In this document: positions 23,669 through 47,473 of the stretch, piece by piece
Numbering within the stretch: position 1 is the first letter of the stretch
How the letters are laid out: the number at the start of each line of letters is the position of its first letter
Origin: Oligoflexales bacterium
Lineage (GTDB): Bacteria > Bdellovibrionota_B > Oligoflexia > Oligoflexales > RGVZ01
Reading direction: 5' to 3'
Assembly: GCA_044236265.1 (NCBI GenBank)
Contig: JBIIGV010000002.1
Coordinates: 4,778-68,777 of the forward strand
Length of the DNA: 64,000 bases
Position numbers and translations under genes: made by a program
The notes under the pieces: model-generated
What the model was told of the DNA's origin: nothing
Database searches by the model: none
The model's input: only the letters and a program-made list of their open reading frames with translations

Positions 23669-23692
23669 AATATAATTCGACAGGTGATCGTG

Positions 23693-24808
23693 ATGTCTCA
23701 AGTTCCTGGACGATTATCCCCCCCGCCCCCTCAAGCCGTGGCCGACGCCCTCGGTGTTGACCATTTAACTATTGAGTGGCTCGCGGGTGACGGGTCTGAC
23801 CGTTGTTATTTTCGCGTTCGCTCTCCAGAGCTCGCTCGAAGTTTTGTGCTCATGCAGCTTTCAGGTAACGATGCGGAAAATTTGAAGAAAGGGCGATACG
23901 ACTGGGTTACCATATCTAACATACTGAAATTAAATGGAATTTCGGCCCCGGCAAGCGCCGCGATTTTGGCTGACCATGCCGCTGTTATAATAGATGACTA
24001 TGGCGACATGATGCTAGAGACCGTGGTTCTTGAACTTGCCAAAAAAGGCATTGTTAACAGCAGTTTACCTCTTTATTTAGACTCCCTCAAAACCGTCGCT
24101 CGCTTTATTTCGATTGCGGCAACCCCTGGCGACATCTGGACGACGCGCTCATTTGACCGCGAGCGTTTTGAGTGGGAGCTCAATTTTTTTGTCAGTAAAT
24201 ATCTTGGCCCCGTAGCCCATTACTCTTTGTCGCCGCAAGAGGCTCAAGATTTCTCTAATGATGTTAGGGCGATATCAAGTTATTTGTCCGAGTCATCAAA
24301 GTACTTCGTTCACAGAGACTTCCACAGCCGCAACATTATGATTCACGAACAGCAAGTTGCGGTTATCGATTTTCAGGATGCGCGCCTGGGCCCACCCTCG
24401 TACGACCTGGTCAGCCTAGTCTTCGACAGTTACGTGCCTCTGAGTCCGGACACGCGGATCAAACTTTTAAACGAGGGTCTTGATCTCATAAAGGCTTCGG
24501 CCAGTGACGCAGTATCGGAGCGGGCTCGGCAAGAATGGAAGCCCATGTTACTTCAGCGGCAACTAAAGGCAATCGGAAGCTTTGGCTACCTAACCATCGA
24601 TAAAAACAAGGGTGACTACATCAAAAACGTTGCGCCAGCCCTGCAGACCCTCCTTGATGCTGGAGTTCAAGATGCTCGATGGCCATTTCTTAGTGGTAAG
24701 CTTCTCCAGATTCTGGCCAAGACTTTACCAGATCGGACCTCTCGCGGGTACGGCGCTAGCAATAAACTCGAGTTGGCGAGGGCATCCTCGTCACCGCGTC
24801 AGTCCTAG
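23693..24808 (+). CDS. APH-fold sugar kinase, AmgK-like (anomeric MurNAc/GlcNAc kinase family)
   Basis: The Brenner/APH motifs HRDFHSRNIMI and VIDFQDARLGPPSYDLVSLVFD are present. It lies immediately upstream of a sugar-1-P nucleotidyltransferase, the pairing described for AmgK-MurU in Pseudomonas putida. Confidence 0.6.
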   Translation: MSQVPGRLSPPPPQAVADALGVDHLTIEWLAGDGSDRCYFRVRSPELARSFVLMQLSGNDAENLKKGRYDWVTISNILKLNGISAPASAAILADHAAVIIDDYGDMMLETVVLELAKKGIVNSSLPLYLDSLKTVARFISIAATPGDIWTTRSFDRERFEWELNFFVSKYLGPVAHYSLSPQEAQDFSNDVRAISSYLSESSKYFVHRDFHSRNIMIHEQQVAVIDFQDARLGPPSYDLVSLVFDSYVPLSPDTRIKLLNEGLDLIKASASDAVSERARQEWKPMLLQRQLKAIGSFGYLTIDKNKGDYIKNVAPALQTLLDAGVQDARWPFLSGKLLQILAKTLPDRTSRGYGASNKLELARASSSPRQS

Positions 24809-24819
24809 AAGGGCGCCGC

Positions 24820-25794
24820 TTGAGCCATAAAGATAGTAAACCATTGAAAGCCCTGGTTCTTTGTGCGGGCCATGGAACAAGGCTAAAGCCTTTAACGGAA
24901 CTCCTACCAAAGCCATTGGCGACCGTTTTAGATGTGCCGCTTGTCGATCTTGCGATCAATCGCTGTGTTGAAGCTGGCGTAACTGACGTTGCCATTAATA
25001 CTCACCACCTTGCCGACAAAATGGGGGATCACGTTCAGGCCCGCCACCGCCAACTCGGAGTCTCAAGCCTCCATGTTTCCCATGAAACACCTCAAATTTT
25101 GGGGACAGGAGGTGCTTTATCTCAGGTCGCAGATTGGTGGGGCGATAGCCTCCTACTCGTTTACAATGGCGACATTCTTAGCAATATAAGCTTTGAGCAG
25201 TTGATATCCGCTCACCGACAGTCAAAGGCCATTGTTACGATGGCTGTCACAAGGACCCCGCCCGCCCAAGGGCGCTCGGTGTGGGTGAACTCAGGTGGAA
25301 TGGTAAAAGCCATCTGTGAAAAGAAAGACCTTCCGTCATCGCTCAAGGTTAATGATCTTAGCGAGTGCGGCTTTGCCTGTGCTTACGTTGCAGGCCCAGA
25401 ATTGAGAGCCTATTTGCCGAAAAAACCTGAGTTTTTCGATGTTATAGTCGCATTTCAAAAGGCTCTGACTGATGGTCATCAAATCAGTGTGACGTTCCAT
25501 GAGGATATTTGGGCTGACGTCGGTACGCCCTTGGCCCTGTGGCAAACAAATTTAGACATAGTCCATCTAAGTGAAGCCAGAAGAAAGTCGCTCTTTGGAA
25601 AGCTGGCCTCATGGCAGGCTTCATGGATAGGCCATGACTTTCAAGTTGATCAAATCTCGGTCGTAAGTAGATCGGCCATCGTTGGTCGGGGGGCGCGCAT
25701 ATCTCAAAGCGTCATTTTGCCGAATGCTGCCGTTGCCGCGGGCGAGGTCGTAGAAAGATCCCTTCTAGGGCCAAATTTTAAAATTAAATTTTAG
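24820..25794 (+). CDS. Sugar-1-phosphate nucleotidyltransferase, MurU-like, with a C-terminal extension
   Basis: The N-terminal ALVLCAGHGTRLKPLTELLPKPL is the G-x-G-T-R-x-P signature. About 100 extra C-terminal residues include a hexapeptide-like segment (SAIVGRGARISQSVILPNAAVAAGEVV). The start is non-ATG (TTG) and uncertain. Confidence 0.6.
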   Translation: MSHKDSKPLKALVLCAGHGTRLKPLTELLPKPLATVLDVPLVDLAINRCVEAGVTDVAINTHHLADKMGDHVQARHRQLGVSSLHVSHETPQILGTGGALSQVADWWGDSLLLVYNGDILSNISFEQLISAHRQSKAIVTMAVTRTPPAQGRSVWVNSGGMVKAICEKKDLPSSLKVNDLSECGFACAYVAGPELRAYLPKKPEFFDVIVAFQKALTDGHQISVTFHEDIWADVGTPLALWQTNLDIVHLSEARRKSLFGKLASWQASWIGHDFQVDQISVVSRSAIVGRGARISQSVILPNAAVAAGEVVERSLLGPNFKIKF

Positions 25795-27278: not shown

Positions 27279-27638
27279 CGTTTACCTCCATAAAAAGTTT
27301 TTTGAAAACAAATCCACAGTATGGACGTCGGCAAATTTCTTTCCTGCTTTAATTTTGAAATAGAGCCAAGTCAGCAGCAATGGGCAAGGCTTTCACGTTC
27401 TGTGTGGCCACAAAATTAAACTAACGACCCTGTTCACGTCTAATCAGCTTAAAACCATTCGAAGCCAAGGGATCCAGAGCCTGGTGATGGGTCTGATTAA
27501 CCACAAATTGGAGCTCTACTAGGCATTTTTTTTACAGCCAAACGGAAAAACATCTAAAAAAATTTTTTTATCAGCTATGATTTTTTTTGAAAATCACAGG
27601 GACCTTGTCCTCATTAAACAGATTTCAAGTCAGGCGTA

Positions 27639-28628
27639 TTGATTTTGGCAAAACATTCAGAACAAAAAACTTATCAGCACACACCAGTTCTATTCCATGA
27701 GTCGGTGGACATCTTGAGTCCAATGCTTGGCTCTACACTCATTGACTGCACGCTTGGCGGCGGCGGTCACACGTCTCTTATGCTAGAAAAAGTTGGCCCT
27801 ACCGGCCGGGTGGTAGCTTTTGACAGAGACCTCAAGGCGATCGATAACGCAAAGGCAAAATTGTCGAGCTCATTGGCGTCCGGAAAACTTGAAATCGTTC
27901 ATGCAACATTTGGTGACATCCTTAAACATGCCGAAAAACTTAATTTAGTCGGCGCCGTTTCCGGTGTACTTGCCGATATTGGAGTGTCCAGTCACCACTT
28001 GGATGAGGATTCTCGTGGGTTTTCATTTATGCACGATGGCCCCCTCGACATGCGCATGGATCAGACGAGTGGAATCACTGCGGCCGAATTTCTTCGTTAT
28101 GCCGACGAAAAAGATATTGCGGATGTCATTTGGAAATATGGTGAAGAACCGAAATCTCGTTTCATCGCCCGGCTCATTTGCGAGATACGAACGAAGTCTC
28201 CCCTTACAACGACAAAACAATTGGCAGACCTCATTTCATCAAAAGTTATTTGGAAGGAGGCTAGTCGAAAGCATCCTGCAACGCGAACATTCCAAGCCCT
28301 CCGAATCCATGTAAACGACGAGCTCGGACAACTCAAACAACTACTGAAAGACGCGCCCAAGGTTCTGGCCCCCGGTGGAATTCTCGCAATTATCACTTTT
28401 CACTCCCTTGAAGATCGCTTGGTTAAGGAGTCCATGTTAGAGATGAGCGGAAAAACCAAACGACAGTCGATACCGCGAGATCTTCCCCTGACGGATGCGC
28501 AAGTCAGCCAAATGAGTGCCAGCCAAGGAACAATCCTTAAACCTTTTCCAGTTGCTCCCAACGAACAAGAGATTCGGGACAACCCTCGTGCACGAAGCGC
28601 AAAGTTAAGGGCTATCCGTTTCCAGTAA
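27639..28628 (+). CDS. rsmH: 16S rRNA (cytosine1402-N4)-methyltransferase
   Basis: HTPVLFHESVD, DCTLGGGGH, DIGVSSHHLD, RGFSF, DMRMD and FHSLEDR are present. It is the first gene of the dcw array. It starts at TTG; there is no in-frame ATG near the N-terminus. Confidence 0.92.
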   Translation: MILAKHSEQKTYQHTPVLFHESVDILSPMLGSTLIDCTLGGGGHTSLMLEKVGPTGRVVAFDRDLKAIDNAKAKLSSSLASGKLEIVHATFGDILKHAEKLNLVGAVSGVLADIGVSSHHLDEDSRGFSFMHDGPLDMRMDQTSGITAAEFLRYADEKDIADVIWKYGEEPKSRFIARLICEIRTKSPLTTTKQLADLISSKVIWKEASRKHPATRTFQALRIHVNDELGQLKQLLKDAPKVLAPGGILAIITFHSLEDRLVKESMLEMSGKTKRQSIPRDLPLTDAQVSQMSASQGTILKPFPVAPNEQEIRDNPRARSAKLRAIRFQ

Positions 28629-28695
28629 TAAATGCGTATAATGGTTTTGAGAGATTTAAAAATTACATTGATTGGCACATTTTTCTGGGGGGTCT

Positions 28696-28968
28696 ATGCG
28701 AACCTTAACTATTCGCTTAGCAATTCTTTGGACCTTTGTTCTTTCTATGTCGGCATTCGCCCGCGTACACTTTCGCAGTGTTACAACGGGAGTCGCCTAC
28801 GACCTGGGTCAATTAAAGACCCGCGAGGGCAAACTCCTTGAAGAGCGAAGCGAGCTACGCGGCGAGCTGGCGCGTCTGACCACAAAGAAAAAACTTGAAG
28901 ATTTAGCTCAATCAGCAATTAAGCCAGCAAAGACGAGTAACAGTGAATCCGGAGCGACACGCCAGTGA
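28696..28968 (+). CDS. ftsL: Cell division protein FtsL-like
   Basis: 90-aa protein with one TM (LAILWTFVLSMSAF) and then a coiled-coil (LKTREGKLLEERSELRGELARL). It sits between rsmH and ftsI and overlaps the ftsI start. The call rests on position and topology. Confidence 0.55.
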   Translation: MRTLTIRLAILWTFVLSMSAFARVHFRSVTTGVAYDLGQLKTREGKLLEERSELRGELARLTTKKKLEDLAQSAIKPAKTSNSESGATRQ

Positions 28969-30845
28969 CTGCAAATGGGTCTAGGTACAGTTTGGCAAAA
29001 CTGCAAAAACTCCTTAAAAAATCCTTTGAGACAAAAGAGTCCACGGGAGGGTTTGATATAACGAGGGCATCTTTTCTTGCCTTAATTTTACTTGGTATCT
29101 TCGGTGTTTTGATTGGGCGCGCAGCAGTCATTCAGTTATTTCCCCCATCCGCGGAAGCGCTTCGACGCATAGCGGCCCGTCAATATGAGCAACATTTGGA
29201 GCTAGCCCCTTACCGAGGCCCGGTTCTAGATCGCAACAGTCACCCCCTGGCCATAAGTGTAAAAAAACCATCCGTCGCGATAAACCCGCGCGTGTTCAGG
29301 CCAAACGCCCAACAAATGAAGCAACTGGCATTACTTCTTGATCTACCTCGCGAAAAGATAAAAGACGTCGCGTCCAAGGACGCGTATTTTGCATGGCTTA
29401 AACGAAAAATCGACCCCGCCGTAGCACAAAAGGTAGAAGGTCTGGAGCTGAAGGGGCTCTATCTTGTCAATGAGGCCACCCGCCTCTACCCTCTGCAGTC
29501 AACGGCCGCCCATCTACTCGGAGCCGTAGGCAGTGAAAATCAGGGTTTGCTTGGGATTGAGCGCCAATTCCAGCAACTCCTAGCCGGAAAGACCACCGCT
29601 GTCAGTCCTTCAAAGGACGCCAGAGGAAGAACTATTCTATATTCGAGTGATATGGCTGCACCAGATCTTCCCGGTCATACGATTCAACTCAGCATTGATC
29701 ACGCCATTCAGGAAATCACTGAAGAGGCTTTAACCTCTGGCGTTATCGCTGCACGAGCTAAAAGCGGATTTGCGGTTGTAACCGATCCGCACACAGGAAA
29801 AATCCTTGCTCTAGCAAACTATCCGACATTTGATCCCAATCAGATTAGTAAAGCTAAAACGGAACACACCAGAAATTATGCGCTCCTAGATCTCTTTGAA
29901 CCCGGATCGATCATCAAGCCATTTGTCGTAGCCGGAGCCCTGGAGATGAAAAAAACATCCCCCCATGAACTTCATAATTGCGAAAATGGTGTATACCGTG
30001 CCGGCGGCGTTGTTTTCCGGGACGACCACCCGGCACCGATGCTGTCTACCGTCGAAACGCTCGTAAGGTCGAGCAATATATGTACTTTTAAAATTGCAGA
30101 GCGACTTGGCAAGCAAGGTCTCTACGACATTTTACAGAAATTTGGTTTCGCTGGTGGCATCTCAATTTCTGAGTTTTTCCCTCCTACCATGCGAGGAAGC
30201 ATTGCAAAGCCAGGGTCCTGGAAGCCGATTAGATTTGCAAATGTGGCCTTTGGACAGGGATTTACAACCACTGGAATCGAAATTGCCATGGCATACGGCG
30301 CATTAGCCAATGGGGGCAACCTAATGCGTCCAATCTTAGTGGATCGCATCACAAGTCCAAGCGGTGAAATCGTTTACGCTGCAACCCCCGAAGCAAGTGC
30401 CCATGTTCTTTCGATTGATCACGCTCGACAAATGAGAGATATCCTGGCGCGTGTCGTCACGGACAAAAAAGGGACCGCCTCGAAGGCTGCGACAGAAGAC
30501 TACACAACTGGGGGAAAGACCGGAACCGCCGAAAAAGTTGATCCAGTTTTAAAAGCTTATTCACCAGACAAAAGAATTGCCAGCTTTGCTGGCTTTGCAC
30601 CTGTTGCAGACCCTTACCTGACAATTTTTGTCATCATCGATGAGCCCGGAGTAAAACCGGCTTATGGCGGTCTCTGGGCGGCACCCGTATTCGCAGATAT
30701 TGCGGAAAGAAGTTTAAGATATTTAAATGTAGCGCCCGATAAAAAGCCAACTAAGATAACCTCGCAGGCACAGGCAGCAAAAGTCTCCACTGCAAAGCCA
30801 ACGCCAGCTAACGAGTCAAATGAAAAACCATCGCGCAGATTTTGA
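28965..30845 (+). CDS. ftsI: Penicillin-binding protein 3 (division transpeptidase)
   Basis: N-terminal TM, PBP dimerisation region and transpeptidase motifs. SxxK is read tentatively as 'GSIIKPF'. SSN ('RSSN') and KTG ('GGKTGTA') are clear. It lies in the dcw position. Confidence 0.9.
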   Translation: MTANGSRYSLAKLQKLLKKSFETKESTGGFDITRASFLALILLGIFGVLIGRAAVIQLFPPSAEALRRIAARQYEQHLELAPYRGPVLDRNSHPLAISVKKPSVAINPRVFRPNAQQMKQLALLLDLPREKIKDVASKDAYFAWLKRKIDPAVAQKVEGLELKGLYLVNEATRLYPLQSTAAHLLGAVGSENQGLLGIERQFQQLLAGKTTAVSPSKDARGRTILYSSDMAAPDLPGHTIQLSIDHAIQEITEEALTSGVIAARAKSGFAVVTDPHTGKILALANYPTFDPNQISKAKTEHTRNYALLDLFEPGSIIKPFVVAGALEMKKTSPHELHNCENGVYRAGGVVFRDDHPAPMLSTVETLVRSSNICTFKIAERLGKQGLYDILQKFGFAGGISISEFFPPTMRGSIAKPGSWKPIRFANVAFGQGFTTTGIEIAMAYGALANGGNLMRPILVDRITSPSGEIVYAATPEASAHVLSIDHARQMRDILARVVTDKKGTASKAATEDYTTGGKTGTAEKVDPVLKAYSPDKRIASFAGFAPVADPYLTIFVIIDEPGVKPAYGGLWAAPVFADIAERSLRYLNVAPDKKPTKITSQAQAAKVSTAKPTPANESNEKPSRRF

Positions 30846-33675
30846 TCAAATTTTTCGTGAGCTTGATAGTGTCGGCCTTGAGCCAGAAATTCTATCCAAA
30901 GTGGGCGGGCGACCGCTTTATTCGGGTGTAGCCGCAGACTCCCGACGCGTTACAAAGGATGACATTTTCTGCGCCATAAAAGGCGCGAAAAACGACGGCC
31001 ATGCCCTACTTCAAGACGTCGCAGAAACTTCCACCCTTTTGATTGTTGAAAGAGCAGTCGACGTTACAACGCTTGCTAATGCGAGCATTATAAAAGTTAA
31101 ATCTACGCGCGGAGCCTGGGCCACATTGGCATCTTTCTTCGCAGATCACCCCGCCAATGAACTCATTATGGTTGGGATTACTGGAACAAACGGCAAAACA
31201 AGTACGACATGGTTGCTTCGGGAAATCTTTACGGGACTTGGGATAAAATCAGGAAGCATCGGAACCCTTGGGTTTTTTGCTGGCGAAGAGCACATAGAAA
31301 GCGCGCACACAACACCGGACCCGGATGTGTTGTATCCAATGCTTTCGTCATTTGTCACAAAAGGCTTAACGCACGTGGTGATGGAGGTATCCAGTCATAG
31401 CTTGGCGCAAGGTAAGGTTTGGCCGATCATGTTCGATGCCTGCGCCTTTACCAGTTTTAGTCAGGACCATCTCGATTTTCATTCGTCTATGGATGAGTAC
31501 CTGACCGCTAAACTTTTGCTTTTTTCTAGGCATCTCAAAGATGGCGGCATCCCTCTAGTCCACCAAAAGGTTCTCGAATGGCCAGCAGCTAAAATGGAGA
31601 TGGCTCGGTTGCCGCACGGCTATCTTTCTTATGGCCATCATTCAACGTACGCAAACTTTCGTGTGCGCTCTGATTCCAATTTTAAACAAGGTTTTTCGCG
31701 CGTAGTAGTCGAAAGCACTGAAGACATGTCAAGCACTCTTACATTGCCAATGGTGGGCGATGTTTTTTGTGAAAACTTCTCAGCCGGCTTGATACTCGCG
31801 ACACAATTACTTAATTCAAAGCTTTCGATCATTAGTCAAAGAATCGGCCAGTCTCAAATAAAACCAGTTCCAGGGCGCTTAGAGCTTGTACGGACGTCGC
31901 AAAAACCATGGCGGCCATCTGTTTACGTAGATTATGCGCACACGCCTGACGCTCTTGAAAAAAGTATTGCCAACCTATCTTCTACTCCAAAGTCGATCAT
32001 TACCGTTTTCGGATGCGGAGGTGAACGGGACAAAACCAAGCGCCCGATCATGGGTGACATAGCTGCAAGATTATCATCAAAAGTCACCATCACTAGCGAC
32101 AACCCAAGATCTGAGAATCCGGCAACGATCATTGAGGACATTTTGGCAGGTATAGTGGACAAGTCTAACGTCGACTCCATTATCGACCGCAGAGTTGCCA
32201 TAAGACAATCCATTGCTGGATGCACAGCACAAACACCAATTTTGATTGCTGGGAAAGGGCATGAACCATACCAGATCATCGGCTCAAAATCGTTTCCTTT
32301 CAGCGATCAAAAAGAGGCGCTAACTGTTCTTGAAGAGTCAAAGGCGTGGCTTGTGGTGGGAGCAGGAGTCACCGGTTTCGCCGCGGCAAAGTTGCTTAGT
32401 CAGGCTAAGGAGAAGGTTTATCTTTACGACGATAAACCAATTCAGATTCCTGAGTATCTCAAAGACTTAACGTCAGTAGTCACGGCTGAAGATGTCCCGT
32501 GGTCTAAAGTCGATTTTGTTGTTAGCAGTCCAGGCTTTTCAAGAGAACATCCGATACTGATGGCGGCTGCTCAAAACAGTAAGGAAATAATTTCTGAAAT
32601 CGACTTGGGCCTTGACCGCTACCGGGGGTCAATCATCGGGGTCACTGGAACAAATGGCAAGTCGACGACTGTCTCTATGATCGAATTTATTTTGCGCAGT
32701 AAAGGAGTCGATGCCGATGCCTGTGGCAATATCGGTATACCACCATCATCGATTCCTATTTGGAAAAAGTCTGACCGCCACGTCTGCGTGTTGGAACTAT
32801 CAAGTTACCAGCTAGATGGAAGCTCTGTCTGGCCAACAAGCGCGGCTGCGATCACAAGCTTTTCGGCAGACCATCTTACAAGACACAAGACCATGTCCGG
32901 CTATTTCGCTGCCAAGTGGCGACTTACAAAGTGGTTAGAGCCATCATCCGTACTGGTGTTGGCGCAAGATGTTGCAGAATTTGCGCTCCGAGAGGGCTCT
33001 CTTTGGCCCAACTGCCGTACAATTATTGTCCGCAAAAATAACGCCATCATCGCTGCTCCAGCCGGTTGCGAATTTGCGGAAATCATCGGCGGACAATTGG
33101 AGTTTGGTGGGTGGCAACTTCAATTTAACCATCTAGGAATCCTGGGAGAGCACAACCAGTTTAATGCTTTCGCAGCAGTCATTCTAGCAAGCCACGTAAT
33201 GGGTCTTTCACCACAAGAGCTCATGCCAATTTTGCGTCAATACAAGGGATTGCCATATCGATGCGAGGTTGTTTTTGAAGATGGTCGGCGATCAATCATA
33301 AACGACAGTAAATCGACAAATTTAGAGAGTACCTTGGCCGCCATGAGCATGGCAAAACGCCCAGTTATTCTTATGATGGGTGGCCAAGGAAAGGGTGAGC
33401 CATACGATGACCTTAGCCAGGTTAAGGATAAGATCGCCACCTTGATTACATTCGGACACTCCGGTCGAATCATCGCTGATCAGTCCCCAAGCGGGGTTCC
33501 TGTCGAATCATTTGACAAAATGGCCCCGGCCGTCTTGCGCGCACTAGATCTTGCGAAACATCATAATCTTGACGTCATCTTTAGTCCCGGCTGTGCCAGT
33601 TTTGACGAATTTAGAAACTTCGAACATCGCGGCGCTGTCTTTACACAAATGGTCGCAGACCATGCACTTGTATAG
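30820..33675 (+). CDS. murE-murD: Fused MurE (UDP-MurNAc-L-Ala-D-Glu:meso-DAP ligase) - MurD (UDP-MurNAc-L-Ala:D-Glu ligase) polypeptide
   Basis: One uninterrupted 951-codon ORF. Residues 1 to about 505 carry MurE motifs: GITGTNGKTSTTWL, DYAHTPDALEKS, GCGGERDKTKRP, TSDNPRSENP (the DNPR determinant for mDAP) and AGKGHEPYQ. From about residue 506 (about nt 32335) MurD motifs follow: VVGAGVTGFAAA, VVSSPG, GVTGTNGKSTT, LELSSYQL, GLPYRCE, INDSKSTN and SPGCASFDEFRNFEHRG. Confidence 0.9.
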   Translation: MKNHRADFDQIFRELDSVGLEPEILSKVGGRPLYSGVAADSRRVTKDDIFCAIKGAKNDGHALLQDVAETSTLLIVERAVDVTTLANASIIKVKSTRGAWATLASFFADHPANELIMVGITGTNGKTSTTWLLREIFTGLGIKSGSIGTLGFFAGEEHIESAHTTPDPDVLYPMLSSFVTKGLTHVVMEVSSHSLAQGKVWPIMFDACAFTSFSQDHLDFHSSMDEYLTAKLLLFSRHLKDGGIPLVHQKVLEWPAAKMEMARLPHGYLSYGHHSTYANFRVRSDSNFKQGFSRVVVESTEDMSSTLTLPMVGDVFCENFSAGLILATQLLNSKLSIISQRIGQSQIKPVPGRLELVRTSQKPWRPSVYVDYAHTPDALEKSIANLSSTPKSIITVFGCGGERDKTKRPIMGDIAARLSSKVTITSDNPRSENPATIIEDILAGIVDKSNVDSIIDRRVAIRQSIAGCTAQTPILIAGKGHEPYQIIGSKSFPFSDQKEALTVLEESKAWLVVGAGVTGFAAAKLLSQAKEKVYLYDDKPIQIPEYLKDLTSVVTAEDVPWSKVDFVVSSPGFSREHPILMAAAQNSKEIISEIDLGLDRYRGSIIGVTGTNGKSTTVSMIEFILRSKGVDADACGNIGIPPSSIPIWKKSDRHVCVLELSSYQLDGSSVWPTSAAAITSFSADHLTRHKTMSGYFAAKWRLTKWLEPSSVLVLAQDVAEFALREGSLWPNCRTIIVRKNNAIIAAPAGCEFAEIIGGQLEFGGWQLQFNHLGILGEHNQFNAFAAVILASHVMGLSPQELMPILRQYKGLPYRCEVVFEDGRRSIINDSKSTNLESTLAAMSMAKRPVILMMGGQGKGEPYDDLSQVKDKIATLITFGHSGRIIADQSPSGVPVESFDKMAPAVLRALDLAKHHNLDVIFSPGCASFDEFRNFEHRGAVFTQMVADHALV

Positions 33676-33710
33676 AGAATTCTGTATAATAGCAGAAGGA
33701 GTTGCCAAGT

Positions 33711-34865
33711 ATGACTAGTGTAGCCAAACCAAGCTCAGCCACTTGCGAAGTGAATAAACTTCAAAGCGCCGGACAACTTCTATTTGCCACCACTCTTTTG
33801 CTCGTTATGTCTGGATTGATCATGGTCTATGCGGCCAGTGCTCTGAAGGGCGAACAGCAGTTTAATGATGCGTTTTTCTTCATTCGCAAGCAAGGAGCCG
33901 TTGCGCTGGCTGGATTTGCGTCAGTAGCTTTAATCGCAAAAGTGCCTATGCGATTCATAGAGCGCATGACGCTTCCTTTGCTAGTGGGTTCACTTATTTT
34001 GTTAGCATTAATTTTTGTACCCGGTGTTTATAAGACCGGCGGTGGTGCGGCCCGATGGATCTCACTGGCCGGCTTTCGATTTCAAACATCAGAATGTGCC
34101 AAATTAGCCCTGGTTTTTTTCTTAGCTAAAAATCTTTCGCGAAAAGGTTTCAATATAAATTCATTCAAGTCTGGCGTTTTGCCTAATGTTTTTGTGTTTT
34201 GTCTGTTTGCTCTATTCATGATGAAACAACCAGACTTCGGCTCTACAGTTCTGATGGGCACCGTCATGGTTGGAATGCTTTTTGTCGCGGGATTAGATTT
34301 TCGGCTCATTATCGGTGCTTTTTTTGCGGCTCTGGCCGCAGTCGTTGCTGCTATTTTAGTTGCGCCTTACCGTCTAGCGCGTCTCACAAGTTTTTTGGAT
34401 CCTTGGGCTCAAATCAAAGGCGGTGGATTTCAAATTATTCAGTCGTACTTGGCATTTCAAAATGGCGGGCTTATGGGGTCAGGACTAGGAGAAAGTCGGC
34501 AGAAGCTTTTCTTCCTTCCGGAAGCTCACACGGACTTTATTTTGGCCGTGCTGGCAGAGGAGCTTGGATTTCTCGGAGTGACTTTCATTTGCCTTGCGTT
34601 TGCGTACTACTGCTTTCTTGGCTTTCGTATTGCCTTCTTGCAGACCCACCCGTTTAGGATGTACCTTGCGTTCGGGCTCACCTCCATGATCGGTTTTCAG
34701 GGGGCAATTAACATGTGCGTCGCGATGGGAATGCTACCTACAAAGGGAATTCCGCTTCCATTTATCAGTAGTGGAGCAAGCAGTCTTTTGATGAGTCTCG
34801 TGGCGACCGCTCTTTTGTGGCGACTGACGATCGAAGATCATGACGAACAAAAACGACGATCTTAA
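33711..34865 (+). CDS. ftsW: SEDS-family peptidoglycan glycosyltransferase FtsW
   Basis: About 10-TM protein with QPSE-like 'FQTSECAK', MKQPDFGS and PTKGIPLPFISSGASS motifs. It lies in the dcw position. ATG 33711 is preceded by an AAGGAG Shine-Dalgarno. Confidence 0.9.
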   Translation: MTSVAKPSSATCEVNKLQSAGQLLFATTLLLVMSGLIMVYAASALKGEQQFNDAFFFIRKQGAVALAGFASVALIAKVPMRFIERMTLPLLVGSLILLALIFVPGVYKTGGGAARWISLAGFRFQTSECAKLALVFFLAKNLSRKGFNINSFKSGVLPNVFVFCLFALFMMKQPDFGSTVLMGTVMVGMLFVAGLDFRLIIGAFFAALAAVVAAILVAPYRLARLTSFLDPWAQIKGGGFQIIQSYLAFQNGGLMGSGLGESRQKLFFLPEAHTDFILAVLAEELGFLGVTFICLAFAYYCFLGFRIAFLQTHPFRMYLAFGLTSMIGFQGAINMCVAMGMLPTKGIPLPFISSGASSLLMSLVATALLWRLTIEDHDEQKRRS

Positions 34866-36234
34866 GGTAGAATTGGCATCTATTTCGCCAATTCATTTTA
34901 TTGGTGCTGCGGGTAGTGGCATGAGGCCTCTCGCCGAGTTTGTAGCGGGCCTCGGCATTCAAGTTTCTGGAAGTGACTCCAAAGCTGACGGTATTAAGGC
35001 TAGTTTTCCATTACATGTTGAAGGATCACCTGAGGATCAACAGCGGCAGCTGTTGGCAAAAACGATCGTTTATTCTAGCGCTATCGGTCCTAGTCATCCT
35101 GCTTTTGTGACAGCTAAAACTTCGGATAAACGCACGCTTCATCGAAGCGAGTTACTAGCTATTATTTGTAAGTTTTATCAGACCATTGCGGTCGCGGGTA
35201 CCCATGGAAAATCAACGACATCTGCAATGGTGGCGCATGTTTTGAAGCAGATCGGCGATGAACCCTCATGGATAATCGGAGCGCCATTTGCTTCAGGAGA
35301 AGATTCCGTTCGCATCGGCTCTGGTCCTTGGTTAGTCATTGAGGCTGATGAGTCGGACGGGTCCTTTTTGCGCTACGAAACACATGTTTCCGTTGTTACC
35401 AATATTGATGCCGATCATATGGACTACTACCAAACGGTTGATAGGCTTAACGAAGCTTTCAAGAAATATTTAGGCCAGACCAGCACTCGAGGAGGCATTG
35501 TCTTCTCTGCTGATCATGGCTCAACCGCAGTAGCGGCTGCTGACTACAGGGGCTTCAAAATATCCTATGGGCTTTCGAACGAAGCAGACTTGCAGGCCGA
35601 AAACTACCGTGTCTCAGGCTTGTCGGCCAGATCGTCTATAAGTTTTAAGGAAGAACGCGCTGAACTTACATTGCCACTACCCGGCAAACACAATACGTCA
35701 AACGCACTGGCAGCTATTGGGGTCGGACTTACTATCGGACACTCTCTCCCCAAGCTTGCTAGCGCTCTCGGCAACTTTCCAGGTGTCCAGCGTAGGCTTC
35801 AACGATATCCAGGCAGCTCAAATGCAATTATATTCGATGATTACGCCCATAATCCCCAGAAAATTCAAAGTTGCATAAAGGGTCTAGAAGAGGCCTTCCC
35901 AGGGCGCAGAATTATCGCCTGCTTTCAGCCACATAGATTTTCTAGAATTTCAAGTCTCTACGGTGAATTTATTGCATCCTTCAAGGGTAGAGACATTGTT
36001 GTTGTAGTTCTGCCCGTTTACGCATCTGGCGAGGCGCCCATAAAGGGGTTTGAGGCCTCCCGCATCGCCTCAGACATTGCCAGAGTTTCAGGGGCCGAAA
36101 CTTTTTCTGAGTCGACTTTTAAAGGCTGCGCCGAATTGATAAAATCAATGTTAGACCCAAACAATGACGTCGTAGTTACGATTGGGGCCGGCGATATATG
36201 GAAAGTCGCGAGGCTTCTATCCTTGAATCTCTAG
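34840..36234 (+). CDS. murC: UDP-N-acetylmuramate--L-alanine ligase
   Basis: HFIGAAGSGMRPLAEF, AVAGTHGKSTTSAM, EADESDGSF, DDYAHNP and the QPHRFSR motif are present. Confidence 0.93.
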   Translation: MTNKNDDLKVELASISPIHFIGAAGSGMRPLAEFVAGLGIQVSGSDSKADGIKASFPLHVEGSPEDQQRQLLAKTIVYSSAIGPSHPAFVTAKTSDKRTLHRSELLAIICKFYQTIAVAGTHGKSTTSAMVAHVLKQIGDEPSWIIGAPFASGEDSVRIGSGPWLVIEADESDGSFLRYETHVSVVTNIDADHMDYYQTVDRLNEAFKKYLGQTSTRGGIVFSADHGSTAVAAADYRGFKISYGLSNEADLQAENYRVSGLSARSSISFKEERAELTLPLPGKHNTSNALAAIGVGLTIGHSLPKLASALGNFPGVQRRLQRYPGSSNAIIFDDYAHNPQKIQSCIKGLEEAFPGRRIIACFQPHRFSRISSLYGEFIASFKGRDIVVVVLPVYASGEAPIKGFEASRIASDIARVSGAETFSESTFKGCAELIKSMLDPNNDVVVTIGAGDIWKVARLLSLNL

Positions 36235-36258
36235 ATAATAACTTTTGAGAGGAACCAT

Positions 36259-37173
36259 ATGATTCGTTTTCTAAAGCGTAAGAGCGGAAAGAAACGATCG
36301 GTTCTCGAAAAACAACGTATTTCTAAAAATACTGGAAAAAAAGGCCTCCTTGACACGTCCTTCTCATGGTCACTCGGAGCAAAGTCTTTGCTCGCTGTGC
36401 TGTTTGTTGTTGTTATTGCCGCACTTTCAATCAGAGTGATTGACAAGATTAATGGTGTTATTTCCTATGTAAACTCCCTGATCGTCCTTTCGCCAACCGA
36501 ATGGAAAATTGAAGTTGTTTCTGACGGTGGCGTACCCTTGCCCGAAGACGTAAAAAAGGAAGTATACAAGGTTGCTGGCAGAGCTTTAAAAACTGGTGCC
36601 TCTGGTGAGTTAAAAAAGCTCTCCAAGCTTGTTGAATCCCTAGGAATGGTTGATCATGTAAGAGTCATTCGTCCGGTTGCAGACACGGTTATACTCTCGG
36701 CCCAACTTCGGCGCCCCGTGCTTTTAGTTAATACAGGCGCAAAGACCAGATATTTATCCTTGGATGCAACTGTCTTTGGAGACAGCGCAGATAGCACTGG
36801 AAACCCCTCTGGCGCAAGCCCAGCGGTTATCGTGACTGGCGTATTCGATCAAAGACAAAATCCAACCATCGATGATTCCATGCGCGTTGTTACAACGACC
36901 GAGGAGCGCCGTCATCTTGCGGATGCTTTAGAGGTCTGGCAGAAATCAAATGAGTCGATGATTGAGCTGCGTCAAATTAATTTTCAGAAATTTCGCGGAT
37001 ACTCCATTACGCTTGCCGACGGAACGGAGGTCGTTCTGGGAATCAAGCCATTCGATTACAAATTGAAAAAACTACGAGGAATTCTCGAAAACTTAAAGAA
37101 GGATGGTTCGGTGGCTGCGCGCATCGAGCTCGACTATGAAGGCAAAGCCTTTATTAAGGAAAAAAAGCTATGA
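36259..37173 (+). CDS. ftsQ: Cell division protein FtsQ-like (TM + POTRA)
   Basis: A basic N-terminus precedes a single TM (LLAVLFVVVIAALSI) and a periplasmic domain. It lies between murC and ftsA and overlaps the ftsA start by 4 nt. The call is mostly positional. Confidence 0.6.
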   Translation: MIRFLKRKSGKKRSVLEKQRISKNTGKKGLLDTSFSWSLGAKSLLAVLFVVVIAALSIRVIDKINGVISYVNSLIVLSPTEWKIEVVSDGGVPLPEDVKKEVYKVAGRALKTGASGELKKLSKLVESLGMVDHVRVIRPVADTVILSAQLRRPVLLVNTGAKTRYLSLDATVFGDSADSTGNPSGASPAVIVTGVFDQRQNPTIDDSMRVVTTTEERRHLADALEVWQKSNESMIELRQINFQKFRGYSITLADGTEVVLGIKPFDYKLKKLRGILENLKKDGSVAARIELDYEGKAFIKEKKL

Positions 37174-38348
37174 CAGGCCGGCTTTCAAGAAAAGACAAGC
37201 GCTTGGCCTTTATTGACATCGGGCACGGGACACTACGCATGCTCGTCACAAATAGTGACGAGTTAGAGGCGTCAGCTTATGAGGCACCTTGCCTTGGTTT
37301 AGCCAAAGGAAAAATAATCGACCCATCAGCTTTCTCTACGTCGATCAGCCAGCTTTTGAAATCAGCCAATATCTCCGGGGATGGCCTGCGCGTCATCGTT
37401 TCTGTGCCCACGCTCCACACACGCATCATCCGAAGGACTATAGAACACCGTTGTAGCGGACACTATAGATCTACGGACTATCAAAGCTTGCATGACGCCG
37501 CTATTGACTCTTGCTCAAGCGAGCTTGACGAAGTTGTCGACGTTCTTTTAACTCAGGCTTGGCTTGATCAAAAGAGCATTGACCCCTTATCGTTTGGACA
37601 TCAAGGCCGCAATCTGCGAGCTCAAGCTCTACTTGCGACCCACCCAAAAACCCTACTGGCAGATATTATTTCTTGTATGAACTCCGTTGGCCTTGAGGTC
37701 TCAGAATTTCGATCTGGTTTTTTTGGACTGTTTAGGGCTGTATTTGCCCTGCGGCCTGGGATTGAAAATGCTGTTTTGATTGACGTCGGGCACAGCACGA
37801 CATCTGGCGTGATGATTATCGGTGGGTCGGCGCAACAAGTTTTCTCTGTCGGAGCTGGAAGTCACCACATTACCAAGGATCTTGCCGTCGGTCTTGGTGT
37901 GGAGACCGCCGAGGCCGAGTTGACCAAGAGGCAGGTTGGTGTCTCCCTGGAGAACGGCGGTTCAAATTTTTCAAAGTTCATTCGCCCGCGGGTCGCCGAG
38001 CTTTTCGCTCTTAGTCTTAAGCATTTTGCCATTTACGCGAAAGCACTTGATGGTGGGCTTATGTTCTGCGGAGGCGGCTCCCAGCTTCCAGGTTTTTCGA
38101 GTTTTTCGGAAAAAGCCATGGGCGTTCCATCTCCGTTTATCTGCAATCTTTCAAATAAATCGGCAGCAGCCTTTCTGGATATGAAGGTGACAACGAACTC
38201 CACCCGTATTGACTCAAGCTGGCTTGCAATTCTTGCTCACGCGAGATTCAGACACGAGGAAGAGGCGGTTCGACGATTCGAACGCGAATCTGGTCCGCTC
38301 GCGAAACTGAGACCTTTGTGGACATGGCTATCTGAGTTGTCGAGATAA
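37170..38348 (+). CDS. ftsA: Cell division protein FtsA (divergent actin-like ATPase)
   Basis: Phosphate-1 FIDIGHGTLRM, phosphate-2 LIDVGHSTTSG and MFCGGGSQLPG are present. The C-terminal amphipathic helix is LAKLRPLWTWLSEL. It lies directly upstream of ftsZ. Confidence 0.75.
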   Translation: MTGRLSRKDKRLAFIDIGHGTLRMLVTNSDELEASAYEAPCLGLAKGKIIDPSAFSTSISQLLKSANISGDGLRVIVSVPTLHTRIIRRTIEHRCSGHYRSTDYQSLHDAAIDSCSSELDEVVDVLLTQAWLDQKSIDPLSFGHQGRNLRAQALLATHPKTLLADIISCMNSVGLEVSEFRSGFFGLFRAVFALRPGIENAVLIDVGHSTTSGVMIIGGSAQQVFSVGAGSHHITKDLAVGLGVETAEAELTKRQVGVSLENGGSNFSKFIRPRVAELFALSLKHFAIYAKALDGGLMFCGGGSQLPGFSSFSEKAMGVPSPFICNLSNKSAAAFLDMKVTTNSTRIDSSWLAILAHARFRHEEEAVRRFERESGPLAKLRPLWTWLSELSR

Positions 38349-38382
38349 GCTTTTTTAAAAGTAATCATTTACAGTCAAAAAG

Positions 38383-38412
38383 TTGACACGCTGTTTCAGC
38401 AGTCCTTATAAT
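38383..38412 (+). promoter_or_regulatory. Candidate sigma-70 promoter for ftsZ
   Basis: TTGACA (38383-38388), an 18-nt spacer, then TATAAT (38407-38412). An AAGGAGG Shine-Dalgarno lies 7 nt before ATG 38503. Confidence 0.5.
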
Positions 38413-38502
38413 TTTACTTATATTTTGTTTTATCTGTTTACTAATCGGACGGTTGTTAATCTTAGGACCACTTAGAGATTAACGCCTGCAAGGAGGCTGA
38501 CC

Positions 38503-40347
38503 ATGTCATTCAATGCTTTTGGAGCAAAAATAAAGGTAATTGGCGTCGGCGGAGGTGGCGGAAACGCTGTCAACACAATGATTCGCTCTGGTCTTGAAGG
38601 CGTTGATTTTATCGTAGCAAACACTGACGCTCAAGCACTCAAGGCATCTCTTGCTCCTCATAAAATTCAACTTGGTAAAGACCTGACAAAGGGCCTTGGA
38701 GCCGGCGCAGATCCAGATATTGGACGTGACGCCGCTCTGGAAGACCGCATGGAGCTGCAAGATTATTTAAGTGATGCCGACATGGTATTTATCACAGCTG
38801 GTATGGGTGGTGGCACAGGAACCGGAGCTGCAGCTGTTGTCGCTCAAATCGCTAGAGAGCTCGGCGCTTTGACAGTTGCCGTCGTAACAAAGCCTTTTGC
38901 TTTCGAAGGAAAAAGACGTCGCAAGCATGCTGAGCAAGGCGTTGCTAGACTTCGCGAGTGTGTCGACACGCTGATTACAATTCCCAACCAAAGACTTCTT
39001 CAGGTAGCAACTCCTGACTTAAGCATGCTCGACGCATTTAAACTCGCTGACAATGTTCTTGTAAATGCAGTGCGCGGCATTAGTGACATTATCAATACGC
39101 CTGGCTTAATTAACGTCGATTTTGCAGACGTTAAGACAGTGATGAGCAGCATGGGTCACGCCCTTATGGGGATTGGTTACGGCTCTGGGACTGAGCGAGC
39201 CCTGTCAGCAGCAAAGCAGGCTATATCGTCACCCCTTCTTGAGGACGTAGATATTGAGGGCGCCACTGGCATCCTGATCAACATCACGGCAGGAACAAAC
39301 GTTTCTATCATGGAAGTAAATAACGCTTGTATGGTCATCCAGGAAGCGGCCCATGAAGACGCAAATATCATATTTGGAGCCGTCATCGACGAAACGTTGG
39401 GTGACGAAATTCGCATTACAGTTATTGCAACAGGGTTTCCCGTTGAAGAGGGATTGCCTGTTGATGACAGCGCAGGCCTCACCACTAGAAGCCTTGCCTC
39501 CTCCAACTCGCCGCGAGTGATAGGACACACCACACCAGTCCCACAGAGACTGGTAAGCCCGCCACGGCTGACGTCTCCTTCAATTGTCACACCGAAGGCT
39601 GCGCCGACGCCCCAAGTAACTGCTCCTCGCACAATCTTGACGCCGCCACCTGCGGTCGTGACTCAAGAGGCTATTGCGCCGCAAGTTGTTGCTCCAGTGC
39701 AAACGGTGCGTGTCGATGTTTCGCACATTCAGCGACCAGCCCACACCACCCCACAGGTACCCGTAGTGAGCGCTCCAGTCGTTCCAGTCATCGAAACTCC
39801 TAGTGAAATCACGGCAAAACCCATCGATGCTGCTTTGGAAGCTGCCGCTCTTGCGCAGTGGACTTTAGAAGAACAGGGCTTTAGCCATCCAGACATGTCA
39901 GATGAGCTGGCTGAACTTGAAATTTCACGATCAGAGGCCCCTGGAACGCCTGTTTTTGCTCCTTCCACACCTGTAACGCAACCAACCAAGACCGTTGCTG
40001 AGCTTGTTTTTGCAGACGATACAACCTCGCCATCGATTGAGGCCAATAATGAGGGCGTTGAGCAAGAATTTGAAATGTGGTCTAGTGAGCTCCGCGAAGA
40101 GCGCGCTGGGGCGACACTCGCGGCATCAGAAGCGCCTTGGGAGTTTGATGCTCCAAACCCTGAGCTCGTATCCAACGAGATCGATCGCCGAATTGACGAA
40201 GCGTTGGCTCTCGCTGGAAAAATGAGTCAAGTAAAGGCCGAGACGAATGCGGTTGCAGGAGCCTCAGAGCAGCAAGAGCTAGACATGGATGACCTGGATC
40301 TTCCAGCTTTCTTGCGCTATGGATCTGATGCGCGTCAGGGCAGCTAA
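38503..40347 (+). CDS. ftsZ: Cell division GTPase FtsZ with an unusually long C-terminal linker
   Basis: [11 protein letters not shown], the tubulin signature [18 protein letters not shown] and ITVIATGF define the core. A linker of about 280 aa rich in P/V/T/A/E follows. The conserved C-terminal peptide is [10 protein letters not shown]. Confidence 0.97.
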
Positions 40348-41432: not shown

Positions 41433-42542
41433 TTATAGCAAGGAGTCATAAATCTTGAGAGTTTTTTGAGCTATTTCCAACCAGCTGGGAAGCCGCAGTT
41501 GATCCAATCCCGTTGGGGCCTTGCCCACAAGGGCATCGAACGCACTAATCCACTCATCCACCGGGGAATCTGGCTTCATGGCTTTTACTTGTTTTTTTCC
41601 ATATCCCGCCACCTCATCAATCCCAGATCCCCTGCAGTAAAGCAATATGAGGCCCCGAGCTAAAGCGTCAGAGGCTGGCAGGCACCACCCTTCATAAAGT
41701 GACGGGTGAATTAATATTTTTGAGTTCGAATAAAGCTCTTCTAGTTCAACGTTTGAAACGTTTTGCAGAACAGTCAAATTTCGCGGAGAATTTTGCAATG
41801 ATTTTGCGCCAAGAGCATCTGTAACAACGGTGAAAGATCTGTGACTTAGTGCGGATGCTATCTCCGAGATAAAATGAAGACGCTTATATCCTTCACCTCG
41901 CGAAATCGTAAGCCCGTCAATAGAACGTGCAGACCATTCTTTCATTGGGGTCTGTGAGGGCGTTGTGCCGTAGCCTAAAATTTCAATTTTTTCACTAACG
42001 CCGATTCCGTAACGCTCAAGAATCTGAATTTTTGTCCATTGCGATGGGGTTAGAATCTTATCAGCTCGTTTAATCACGCCTGGTAACAACGTTAGGTATT
42101 GAAGATAGAGCGGAGTGATTTCTTCAAGATTAAGAGGTGTTAAGTCATGGACTGTTACGACAAAACGGTCACCAGTTCGTTTACGGGCGAAGACTGGTAG
42201 ATTGATGTTGCTTAGGCCGTGAAAAATAACGCTTTGATTATTCCATCTTTCTTTGGCGGCCGCGTATGTCACGCTTGGATAAAATGGCTTGAGTCGTTCC
42301 AATTTTGAAAAAAAAGTGCCTTGGCGAGCTTGGATTTTTATCCTTTGCTCCTCAGCAGTAAATTCGATCGCTTCATCAGTAAACGCAAGAATACTTGGCT
42401 GGCAACCAAGCTCATTCAAAGAACTACATAGATTGCGACCATAAACGCCAACGCCGCTGTTGGGATGTGCCAAACCGAGACCATCCCAGACAATCTGTGG
42501 ACGACCAACACGCTCCACATCTGTCGGCAACGATGTAGTCAT
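41433..42542 (-). CDS. GT-B glycosyltransferase (family 1/4-like)
   Basis: The C-terminal half carries a LIHPSLYEGWCLPASDALARG (E-x7-E type) motif. It starts 12 nt after the atpC stop on the same strand. Confidence 0.65.
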   Translation of the reverse strand: MTTSLPTDVERVGRPQIVWDGLGLAHPNSGVGVYGRNLCSSLNELGCQPSILAFTDEAIEFTAEEQRIKIQARQGTFFSKLERLKPFYPSVTYAAAKERWNNQSVIFHGLSNINLPVFARKRTGDRFVVTVHDLTPLNLEEITPLYLQYLTLLPGVIKRADKILTPSQWTKIQILERYGIGVSEKIEILGYGTTPSQTPMKEWSARSIDGLTISRGEGYKRLHFISEIASALSHRSFTVVTDALGAKSLQNSPRNLTVLQNVSNVELEELYSNSKILIHPSLYEGWCLPASDALARGLILLYCRGSGIDEVAGYGKKQVKAMKPDSPVDEWISAFDALVGKAPTGLDQLRLPSWLEIAQKTLKIYDSLL

Positions 42543-42554
42543 TAAAAAACCTAG

Positions 42555-42980
42555 TTAATGCAACGCTTTCGTAGCGCCAGCGATTTCAAGACGGTGCTCA
42601 GCACGCTTCTTTGCGCTTAGTGCACGCGGCACGTCAACTCCCCCAGATTTTGCCTGAAGCAGTTGCTCCTCCGCTTTTATGAGAGCTTTTTTTGCACGAT
42701 CCACATTTATTTCCGTTGGCTTTTCGATCACGTTTGCCAAAACCGTCACTGCGTCACGTGAAACATCGACAAAACCACCGGACACGAAAAGCTTTTCTGC
42801 AGATGTTGAGCCACTCTCTAAAACGAGGGTTCCTATGCCCAGCTCGGCAACCATGGGCGTGTGCCCAGGCAGTAGCGTCATGTAGCCAAGCTCACCAGGA
42901 AGTCCCAGCGCCCTCGCAGGTCCGCGGAAAATGATTCGCTCAGGAGAAAGAACCCTGACTTGTAATTCGCTTTGTAGCAT
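42555..42980 (-). CDS. atpC: F1 ATP synthase epsilon subunit
   Basis: LQVRVLSPERIIF..LPGELGYMTLLPGHTPMV and a C-terminal helical hairpin are present. It follows atpD. Confidence 0.9.
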   Translation of the reverse strand: MLQSELQVRVLSPERIIFRGPARALGLPGELGYMTLLPGHTPMVAELGIGTLVLESGSTSAEKLFVSGGFVDVSRDAVTVLANVIEKPTEINVDRAKKALIKAEEQLLQAKSGGVDVPRALSAKKRAEHRLEIAGATKALH

Positions 42981-43037
42981 CTAATAGCTCCTAGCTTAGT
43001 CAAGCACCCCGCTATTTTAGCGGGGGCTCACTTCGTG

Positions 43038-44474
<1,437 letters not shown>

Positions 44475-44512
44475 TTAAAGTTTTTCAAAATTAAATTTAA
44501 TTTTCACTGTTT

Positions 44513-46883: not shown

Positions 46884-46902
46884 AGTGCCTCATTGTCCTT
46901 TC

Positions 46903-47442: not shown

Positions 47443-47473
47443 ATTGTTCTCCGGAGCTTGGCCTTTGTCTGCG

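Follow-up and report, generated by a model that had tools for sequence, protein, structure and literature searches.

The 64,000-nucleotide stretch of Oligoflexales bacterium DNA analysed here (contig JBIIGV010000002.1 of assembly GCA_044236265.1; hereafter, the window) carries a division and cell wall (dcw) gene cluster in which the genes of two peptidoglycan precursor ligases, murE and murD, form a single gene, murE::murD (Table 1). An initial reading of the locus made from the DNA alone (the sequence-only reading) had described one uninterrupted frame of 951 codons. The listing of open reading frames (ORFs) and the translation agree on this, with no stop codon inside the 951 residues. When the whole protein was searched, the MurE model TIGR01085 matched residues 34-504 (model positions 4-471 of 472), NF001126 matched as well, and the MurD model TIGR01087 matched residues 511-945 (model positions 3-439 of 441; 382.8 bits). 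Searched alone, the MurE half was placed as a full-length MurE by NF001126 (421 bits, cut-off 373) and TIGR01085 (413.8 bits, cut-off 257.3), with the equivalogs for meso-diaminopimelate (meso-DAP)-adding MurE scoring best in NCBIfam (421 bits versus 253 for the L-Lys type). The 446-residue MurD half was likewise placed as a full-length MurD by TIGR01087 (317.5 bits, cut-off 211.95), against 59.5 bits for MurF.

Pfam found Mur_ligase_M and Mur_ligase_C twice each, together with a MurD-like N-terminal domain at residues 510-591 (PF21799, 28.0 bits, cut-off 27). This domain is of the Rossmann type, which sets MurD and MurC apart from MurE and MurF. The domain scan that had been proposed as a check on the sequence-only reading thus returns two Mur ligases in the order MurE then MurD, and the positions of the matches along the chain bear out that this order is the reverse of the pathway order. 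The description of both halves as complete also holds. The MurE half shows an end-to-end model match with the DNPR and AGKGHE hallmarks at the residues quoted (AGKGHE at 477-482), and the MurD half is matched end to end and carries SPGCASFDEFRNFEHRG at residues 922-938, followed by 13 further residues and the stop. A 951-codon open frame with two full-length family matches lies far beyond chance, and it is confirmed that the fused protein holds two complete ligases, MurE then MurD, in one frame. The MurE-MurF family model NF008896 was considered and rejected, as it reached only 478.6 bits against a cut-off of 1023 and matched only the MurE part (residues 36-508).

Table 1. Coordinates of the fused gene, its modules and motifs, and the neighbouring dcw genes in the window. 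A1 is the alignment of 30 full-length fusion proteins described in the text.
Feature	Position	Strand	Remarks
rsmH	27639-28628	+	Pfam Methyltransf_5
putative ftsL	28672-28968	+	98-residue ORF, no family match; named by position only
ftsI	28965-30845	+	Pfam PBP_dimer, Transpeptidase; overlaps the start of murE::murD by 26 nucleotides
murE::murD fused gene	30820..33675	+	single ORF, 951 codons and stop, ATG start
MurE module, predicted UDP-MurNAc-L-Ala-D-Glu:meso-DAP ligase	30820..32334	+	residues 1-505; profile, fold and phmmer matches
MurE ATP-binding P-loop GITGTNGKTS	31174..31203	+	residues 119-128; G122, T123, N124, G125, K126, T127, S128 invariant in A1
DNPR motif	32098..32109	+	residues 427-430; D427, N428, P429, R430 invariant in A1
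fusion junction LEESKAWLVVGAGVTG	32329..32376	+	residues 504-519; last MurE helix, about four residues, first MurD strand and Rossmann GxGxxG
MurD module, predicted UDP-MurNAc-L-Ala:D-Glu ligase	32335..33675	+	residues 506-951; profile, Pfam and fold matches
MurD ATP-binding P-loop GVTGTNGKST	32638..32667	+	residues 607-616; T609, G610, N612, G613, K614, T616 invariant in A1
ftsW	33702-34865	+	Pfam
murC	34840-36234	+	Pfam
ftsQ	36259-37173	+	Pfam
ftsA	37170-38348	+	Pfam
ftsZ	38503-40347	+	Pfam; 614 residues

Conservation of catalytic residues was assessed in an alignment (A1) of 30 full-length fusion proteins that are 28-97% identical to the window protein. In addition to the P-loop (G122-S128) and the DNPR motif at 427-430, which is the meso-DAP specificity determinant of MurE, the MurE module keeps E189, D216/H217/H221, K231, R403 and G478-E482 invariant. 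In the MurD module, the P-loop region (T609-T616), N637, E659, D684/H685, K699, N782, R814, N828-K831/T833/N834, K858, S927/D929 and R937/G938 are invariant. K231 and K699, both kept in the 30 fusions, align with the carbamylated lysines of MurE and MurD, and A1 also keeps the Mg/acyl-phosphate residues and the D-Glu pocket motifs of MurD (NDSKxTN, GGxGK and SPxCAS). Comparison with E. coli MurD chains showed that GxNGKST, GNIG, LELSS, DHxxR, AAKxR, HNxxNA, GLPxRxE, NDSKxTN, GGxGK and SPxCASxDxFxNFExRG are conserved, so that the motifs for ATP, Mg, UDP-MurNAc-L-Ala and D-Glu are retained with one Leu-to-Phe change, CAS(L/F)D. The MurE half aligns to the E. coli and Bordetella pertussis MurE proteins, including TSDNPRSE (phmmer E ~1e-67 for E. 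coli).

An AlphaFold2 model built on A1 had a mean predicted local distance difference test (pLDDT) score of 89.8 and a predicted template modelling score (pTM) of 0.81. In Foldseek searches it matched the MurE structures 1e8c, 2xja and 4bub with target-normalised template modelling (TM) scores of 0.76-0.88, recovering the three-domain fold, and E. coli MurD at ~0.82 (also target-normalised). Judged by these motifs and folds, both modules look catalytically competent.

Where the two modules meet, the sequence-only reading had placed the start of MurD, without a linker, at its own N-terminal Rossmann fold near nucleotide 32335, and profile bounds and alignment agree. In the window protein GAGVTG follows directly after the junction. 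Across close and mid-distance members, the junction has an identical length in the 30 aligned fusions and follows the pattern '...FSDxxxAxxxL', 3-5 residues, 'WLVxGAGVSG'. The model shows a helix (496-504), a four-residue turn and a strand (509-513) at this point, in a block with pLDDT 92-95, and base composition is unbroken across it.

These features also bear on whether the fused ORF yields two proteins, an ordinary MurE and an ordinary MurD, through internal initiation near the junction or through proteolysis. In the window, in-frame GTG codons (V512, V513) do lie 8 nucleotides 3' of a weak AAGG. However, none of the 30 aligned fusions has a Met at the junction, and the candidate GTG and Shine-Dalgarno sequence are not kept in the DNA of two other fusion loci (L087 and L083). 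A start at V512 would moreover leave one residue before GxGxxG, where unfused relatives have 5-7, and would delete the first beta-strand. Together with the ordered, continuous junction predicted by the model, this makes the production of two separate proteins unlikely.

The sequence-only reading had suggested asking whether relatives carry the same fusion, and they do. Searches of a large protein collection returned full-length relatives of 910-990 residues at 95-100% query coverage, with identities from 98% to ~29%, which fall into a clade from 98% to ~37% identity and a separate lineage at ~30%. They derive from NCBI, JGI, ENA and Logan assemblies, and a 98%-identical copy of the fused gene is present in two independent assemblies (L081 and L082). 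The fusion is thus fixed across a clade and recurs in independent lineages. The possibility of an assembly, sequencing or gene-calling artefact, such as a lost stop or a chimeric join, had to be considered given that the window is probably a metagenome-derived assembly. Yet the same architecture at 98% to ~30% identity in many independent assemblies and pipelines, the constant junction length without a break in composition, and the E-D fusions of independent lineages effectively refute it.

Even so, the architecture is scarce. When 1.84 billion representatives were searched exhaustively with a profile, 32,840 proteins had E <1e-30, and full-length fusions of MurE and MurD (E-D) made up only ~20 clusters formed at 50% identity, so that the architecture is rare but not unique. 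A scan of a genome collection with the fusion alignment served as a control. The 80 loci listed were ordinary MurE loci (28-39% identity) without a close relative among them, and in none of them did local hidden Markov models (HMMs) find a single ORF with matches to both ligases. When local HMMs for MurC, MurD, MurE and MurF were applied to the long matches of the protein-collection searches, 137 clusters had the architecture E-F and 53 had E-D. The remaining classes comprised E-E tandems and C-E-D fusions (3 clusters each), C-D-E (1 cluster) and D-E (1 cluster). Where the fusion proteins have database names, these are MurE or MurD only and never a fusion.

The rarer classes were also recorded individually. 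Tandem MurE-MurE proteins of ~976-979 residues were seen twice (P0041, P0276), with two full MurE matches in P0041. Multi-ligase fusions comprised MurC-MurE-MurD (P0046, P0047, P0287), MurC-MurD-MurE (P0280) and MurD-MurE (P0312). One of the triple fusions (P0047; L085 10001-15434) is encoded on a 22%-GC TARA ocean contig, where it adjoins two genes for mitochondrial carriers and a UFD1 gene, followed by mraY and a transglycosylase gene; candidate hosts are a eukaryote, a giant virus or an endosymbiont. No match to this AT-rich type of MurC-MurE-MurD triple fusion was found in scans of viral contigs (IMG/VR).

The evolutionary behaviour of the fused gene was examined at two distances. Between the window and its conspecific L081 (identical to L082), 128 of 22,856 positions differ. 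Of these 128 single-nucleotide differences, 76 fall in 30951-33715 (10132-12896 in L081/L082), a tract that coincides almost exactly with the fused gene, at a density about ten times that of the neighbours. Codon changes in the fused gene number 50 synonymous and 24 non-synonymous, compared with 0-7 of each kind in each neighbouring gene. A rough site-count estimate for these two copies gives a ratio of non-synonymous to synonymous change (dN/dS) of ~0.15, indicating purifying selection. With synonymous divergence raised and the limits of the tract close to those of the gene, the pattern points to import of the murE::murD allele by recombination. At the larger distance, against L087 (window 28965-36234), FtsI, FtsW and FtsL are 72-78% identical (FtsI and FtsW 72-76%) and GyrB ~91%, whereas MurE, MurD and MurC are only 45-51% identical. 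The cytoplasmic ligases of this clade, MurC as well as the fused pair, thus change much faster than their membrane partners.

Such rapid evolution of the Mur modules within the clade would fit a fusion in which one module is dead or repurposed, leaving only one ligase activity. A precedent for repurposing is PAP11, a plant MurE-like subunit of the plastid RNA polymerase, and MurE-like non-ligase proteins (8w9z, 8r5o) are among the PDB matches of the window protein; in addition, the Pfam N-terminal Mur_ligase domain was not detected in the window MurE half. By contrast, neither module varies in its ATP, Mg or substrate motifs across the 30 fusions, both halves score above equivalog or subfamily cut-offs, the gene is under purifying selection, and no second murD or murE is present in the operon. 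Loss of one activity is therefore very improbable.

That MurC, MurD and MurE diverge so much faster than FtsI and FtsW could also reflect a bifunctional enzyme with altered chemistry, in which MurE adds another diamino acid or MurD uses another acceptor to build an unusual peptidoglycan. The change in the D-Glu pocket from CASLD in E. coli to CASFD here, and a gene pair resembling AmgK and MurU that adjoins the operon, would be in keeping with this. Against it stand the invariance of DNPR and of other residues in the MurE specificity region, the NCBIfam preference for the meso-DAP type noted above, and the conservation of the remaining MurD pocket motifs, and we consider a changed chemistry to be improbable, although slightly less so than the loss of a module.

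The surroundings of the fused gene give an indication of how it arose. Its flanking gene order is kept in relatives at 98%, 48%, 40% and 38% identity, with rsmH-ftsL-ftsI upstream of the fusion common to all relatives. The shared frame comprises genes for a sigma factor, a diacylglycerol (DAG) kinase-like protein, an APH-family kinase, a nucleotidyltransferase and a LysM protein, then rsmH, ftsL and ftsI on one side, and ftsW, murC, ftsQ, ftsA and ftsZ on the other. In the window, uvrD is also found farther upstream, while an epimerase gene, a glycosyltransferase gene, the atp operon, and then parAB and dnaA-dnaN-gyrB-gyrA lie farther downstream. The same frame holds three loci in which murE and murD are separate. 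Two of them (L088 and L092) read ftsI-murE-mraY-murD-ftsW-murC and the third (L089) reads ftsI-murE-murF-mraY-murD-ftsW-murC, with murG, murB and ddl already gone from the cluster in all three. The standalone enzymes of these loci are 37-41% identical to the window MurE half and 35-37% identical to the MurD half. The result is a series of states, from murE-murF-mraY-murD (L089) through murE-mraY-murD (L088, L092) to murE::murD (window). As to the relationships of these contigs, the nearest named homologues of the L088 MraY are in Oligoflexales, Oligoflexus, Pseudobacteriovorax and Bdellovibrionota, and the GyrB of the window is ~91% identical to copies on fusion-carrying contigs and 67% identical to that of Oligoflexus sp. 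and Oligoflexales bacterium. These comparisons place the window in an uncultured lineage of Oligoflexia type, labelled 'Pseudomonadota bacterium' at NCBI.

The unfused L088 enzymes locate the joint precisely. Its MurE ends in '...FPFDDRKIARAVLESL' and a stop (that is, '...AVLESL' and stop), its MurD starts with 'MSKVLVIGAGVSG', and the window protein reads '...FPFSDQKEALTVLEESKAWLVVGAGVTG', such that the C-terminus of the one and the N-terminus of the other abut exactly at the window fusion point. At the fusion point, the natural C-terminus of MurE thus runs on into the natural N-terminus of MurD, with the start Met gone. A junction at natural termini, taken with the unfused states, supports deletion or relocation of the intervening genes. 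The sequence-only reading had pointed out that in-frame loss or relocation of murF and mraY would leave such a junction. The synteny of the three unfused loci upholds the removal of genes between murE and murD, and the part that changes is the last step, which was probably the loss of mraY alone, from a cluster already without murG, murB and ddl.

Whether the fusion arose once was addressed with one neighbour-joining tree per half (100 bootstraps). In both trees all Oligoflexia-type fusions fall into a single clade together with the unfused L088 and L089 (99-100% support). A second clade of fusions (P0270, P0042, P0045, P0052 and P0043; 85-91% support) groups with gamma- and betaproteobacterial standalone enzymes (76-89% support), and its frame is of gammaproteobacterial type, mraZ-rsmH-ftsL-ftsI-murE::murD-ftsW-murC-ftsQ-ftsA-ftsZ-lpxC-...-M23-secA. 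Two further contexts differ again. In a groundwater bacterium (L090), the E-D fusion is followed, at a distance of 3-8 kb, by ddl, another Mur-ligase gene and mraY-ftsW-murG, and in a 65%-GC genome (L091) the fused gene stands alone. A single origin of all E-D fusions is ruled out by both trees and by gene context. The trees and the unrelated gene contexts indicate multiple origins; at least two independent ones are well supported, and there were probably four or more. Within the Oligoflexia-type clade, where the unfused lineages may branch before or among the deepest fusions (P0036, P0039 and P0040), the fusion may have arisen once or more than once.

Similar gene losses accompany the fusion elsewhere. 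Two gammaproteobacteria-like loci (L083 6642-18508 and L173 6634-18613) have the same reduced cluster as the window (27639-40347), reached independently. In both lineages it reads (mraZ)-rsmH-ftsL-ftsI-murE::murD-ftsW-murC-ftsQ-ftsA-ftsZ, without ddl, murF, mraY or murG. In the groundwater bacterium the late genes ddl, mraY and murG form a separate group a few kb from its fusion.

Several other features of the neighbourhood were seen. The APH-family kinase and nucleotidyltransferase genes (23684-25794) have AmgK and MurU as their best or near-best NCBIfam matches, far below cut-off, and the pair holds its position in relatives whether fused or not (L087, L088, L089 and L092). AmgK and MurU act in the salvage of MurNAc to UDP-MurNAc. 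There is no mraZ 5' of rsmH, where the gap (27279-27638) is too short for one; mraZ is present in the unfused L088 and absent in L089 and L092. FtsZ has a tail of ~300 residues, its GTPase and C-terminal domains ending near residue 312, and the FtsZ proteins of relatives have 472-657 residues. Finally, the dcw operon lies only ~12 kb from dnaA, and 42500-60507 of the window covers the likely replication origin region.

Taken together, these data favour the interpretation that murE::murD encodes a genuine bifunctional Mur ligase, adding D-Glu and then meso-DAP, that arose by loss or movement of the intervening genes, to which we assign a probability of about 0.82. On this interpretation the C-terminus of murE was joined in frame to the N-terminus of murD once the genes between them were lost or moved. 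The separate MurC, encoded by the second gene downstream, would make UDP-MurNAc-L-Ala; the C-terminal MurD module (residues ~506-951) would add D-Glu to it; and the N-terminal MurE module (residues 1-505) would then add meso-diaminopimelate to the MurD product. The tripeptide would pass to a MurF encoded elsewhere in the genome, where mraY, murG and ddl would also be located. As one 104-kDa chain, the fusion would fix a 1:1 ratio of consecutive enzymes and keep them together. The E-then-D order does no more than mirror dcw gene order and would be no bar to hand-over between the modules. Catalysis in MurE involves the closing of its domain 3. In a fusion without a linker, MurD domain 1 has to follow this movement, and it may be speculated that the shared motion couples both catalytic cycles.

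Several observations weigh against this interpretation. Among the scanned ORFs of at least 150 residues in the 64-kb window (overlapping spurious ORFs left out), no murF, mraY, murG, murB or ddl was found, and in a search with the L088 MraY none of the best 120 matches (64-98% identity) was on a contig whose length tied it to the fusion clade; two candidates proved to be further unfused relatives. The fast divergence of the ligases could mean relaxed or shifted constraint. Channelling of UDP-MurNAc-L-Ala-D-Glu is speculative, and the role of the fusion could be limited to co-expression or stability. The last such point concerns the closest structural parallel, the MurE-MurF chimera of Bordetella pertussis (PDB 8F5D; Shirakawa et al. 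2023), which is linker-less, with both enzymes independently functional and the MurE C-terminus covering a hydrophobic patch on its partner (PMC10214165). It is the top Foldseek match of the window model (E 5.7e-39), but the whole-chain superposition is poor (root-mean-square deviation 23.7, TM 0.40-0.48), suggesting that the inter-module geometry may differ.

In other respects the two proteins are alike, as each consists of two complete ligases for consecutive steps, MurE N-terminal, joined head to tail without a linker and derived from neighbouring dcw genes. They differ in that the chimera pairs MurE with MurF, the following step, whereas the window protein pairs it with MurD, the preceding step, and in that the fusion described here needed the removal of intervening genes and not just the loss of a stop codon.

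Five major types of Mur chimera are distinguished in a published survey, namely MurE-MurF, MurC-Ddl (Chlamydiae, Firmicutes), MurC-MurB (Verrucomicrobia), MurG-MurC (Actinobacteria) and MurD-FtsW, with MraY-MurG as a further type (PMC10214165). Like the window protein, these are natural, lineage-restricted fusions of dcw peptidoglycan genes and have been read in terms of co-expression, stability or complex formation, but none pairs MurE with MurD (PMC10214165). The survey took 5,914 UniProt sequences as its starting set and did not include species that were unidentified (PMC10214165), an exclusion that would leave out E-D lineages represented only by metagenome-assembled genomes. The window protein, as a conserved polypeptide comprising two complete pathway enzymes, qualifies as a Mur chimera and fits no described type. 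The multi-ligase fusions found here (P0046, P0047, P0287, P0280 and P0312) also contain a MurE-MurD or MurD-MurE pair, but they have an extra MurC or the opposite order, come from unrelated, AT-rich or marine sources and, at ~30% identity, are only distantly related to the window protein. In the full text of 8 million papers, the pairing of the two names occurred in two, neither of which, judged by its title, concerns a fusion, and broader searches on dcw genes and fusions gave nothing relevant. The sequence-only reading, which named no characterised MurE-MurD fusion, is consistent with the survey and the literature found, the proteins being public but named MurE or MurD. MurE-MurD is a new combination within the known phenomenon of Mur fusions.

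One practical consequence follows from the plain MurE or MurD names, with which pathway reconstructions will wrongly score one enzyme as missing in these genomes. The locus is also a clean case of two genes fusing through removal of an essential gene between them, in one of the most conserved bacterial operons. Cell wall biology has yet to settle whether the Mur ligases act as a complex, a question that bears on antibiotic design, and up to now only the MurE-MurF chimera has shown the structure of two joined ligases. The MurE-MurD protein offers a second natural and stable ligase pair, covering the D-Glu and meso-DAP steps, with built-in controls in the form of syntenic unfused relatives, independent fusions in other phyla, and the MurC-MurE-MurD and MurC-MurD-MurE triples. 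A more tentative idea, which we think doubtful, is that the E-D pair is the recurrent covalent core of the long-hypothesised cytoplasmic Mur-ligase complex and mimics a native, non-covalent MurD-MurE interface that hands over UDP-MurNAc-L-Ala-D-Glu between the active sites. On this idea, the repeated direct joining of the MurE C-terminal domain to the MurD N-terminal domain in separate lineages, a few of which add MurC, would be due to that contact. If so, E-D proteins would be natural tools with which to solve the interface and measure channelling, and the loss of ddl, murF, mraY and murG from the cluster, in parallel in two phyla, would represent a split between the early-ligase and the late, lipid-linked halves of the pathway.

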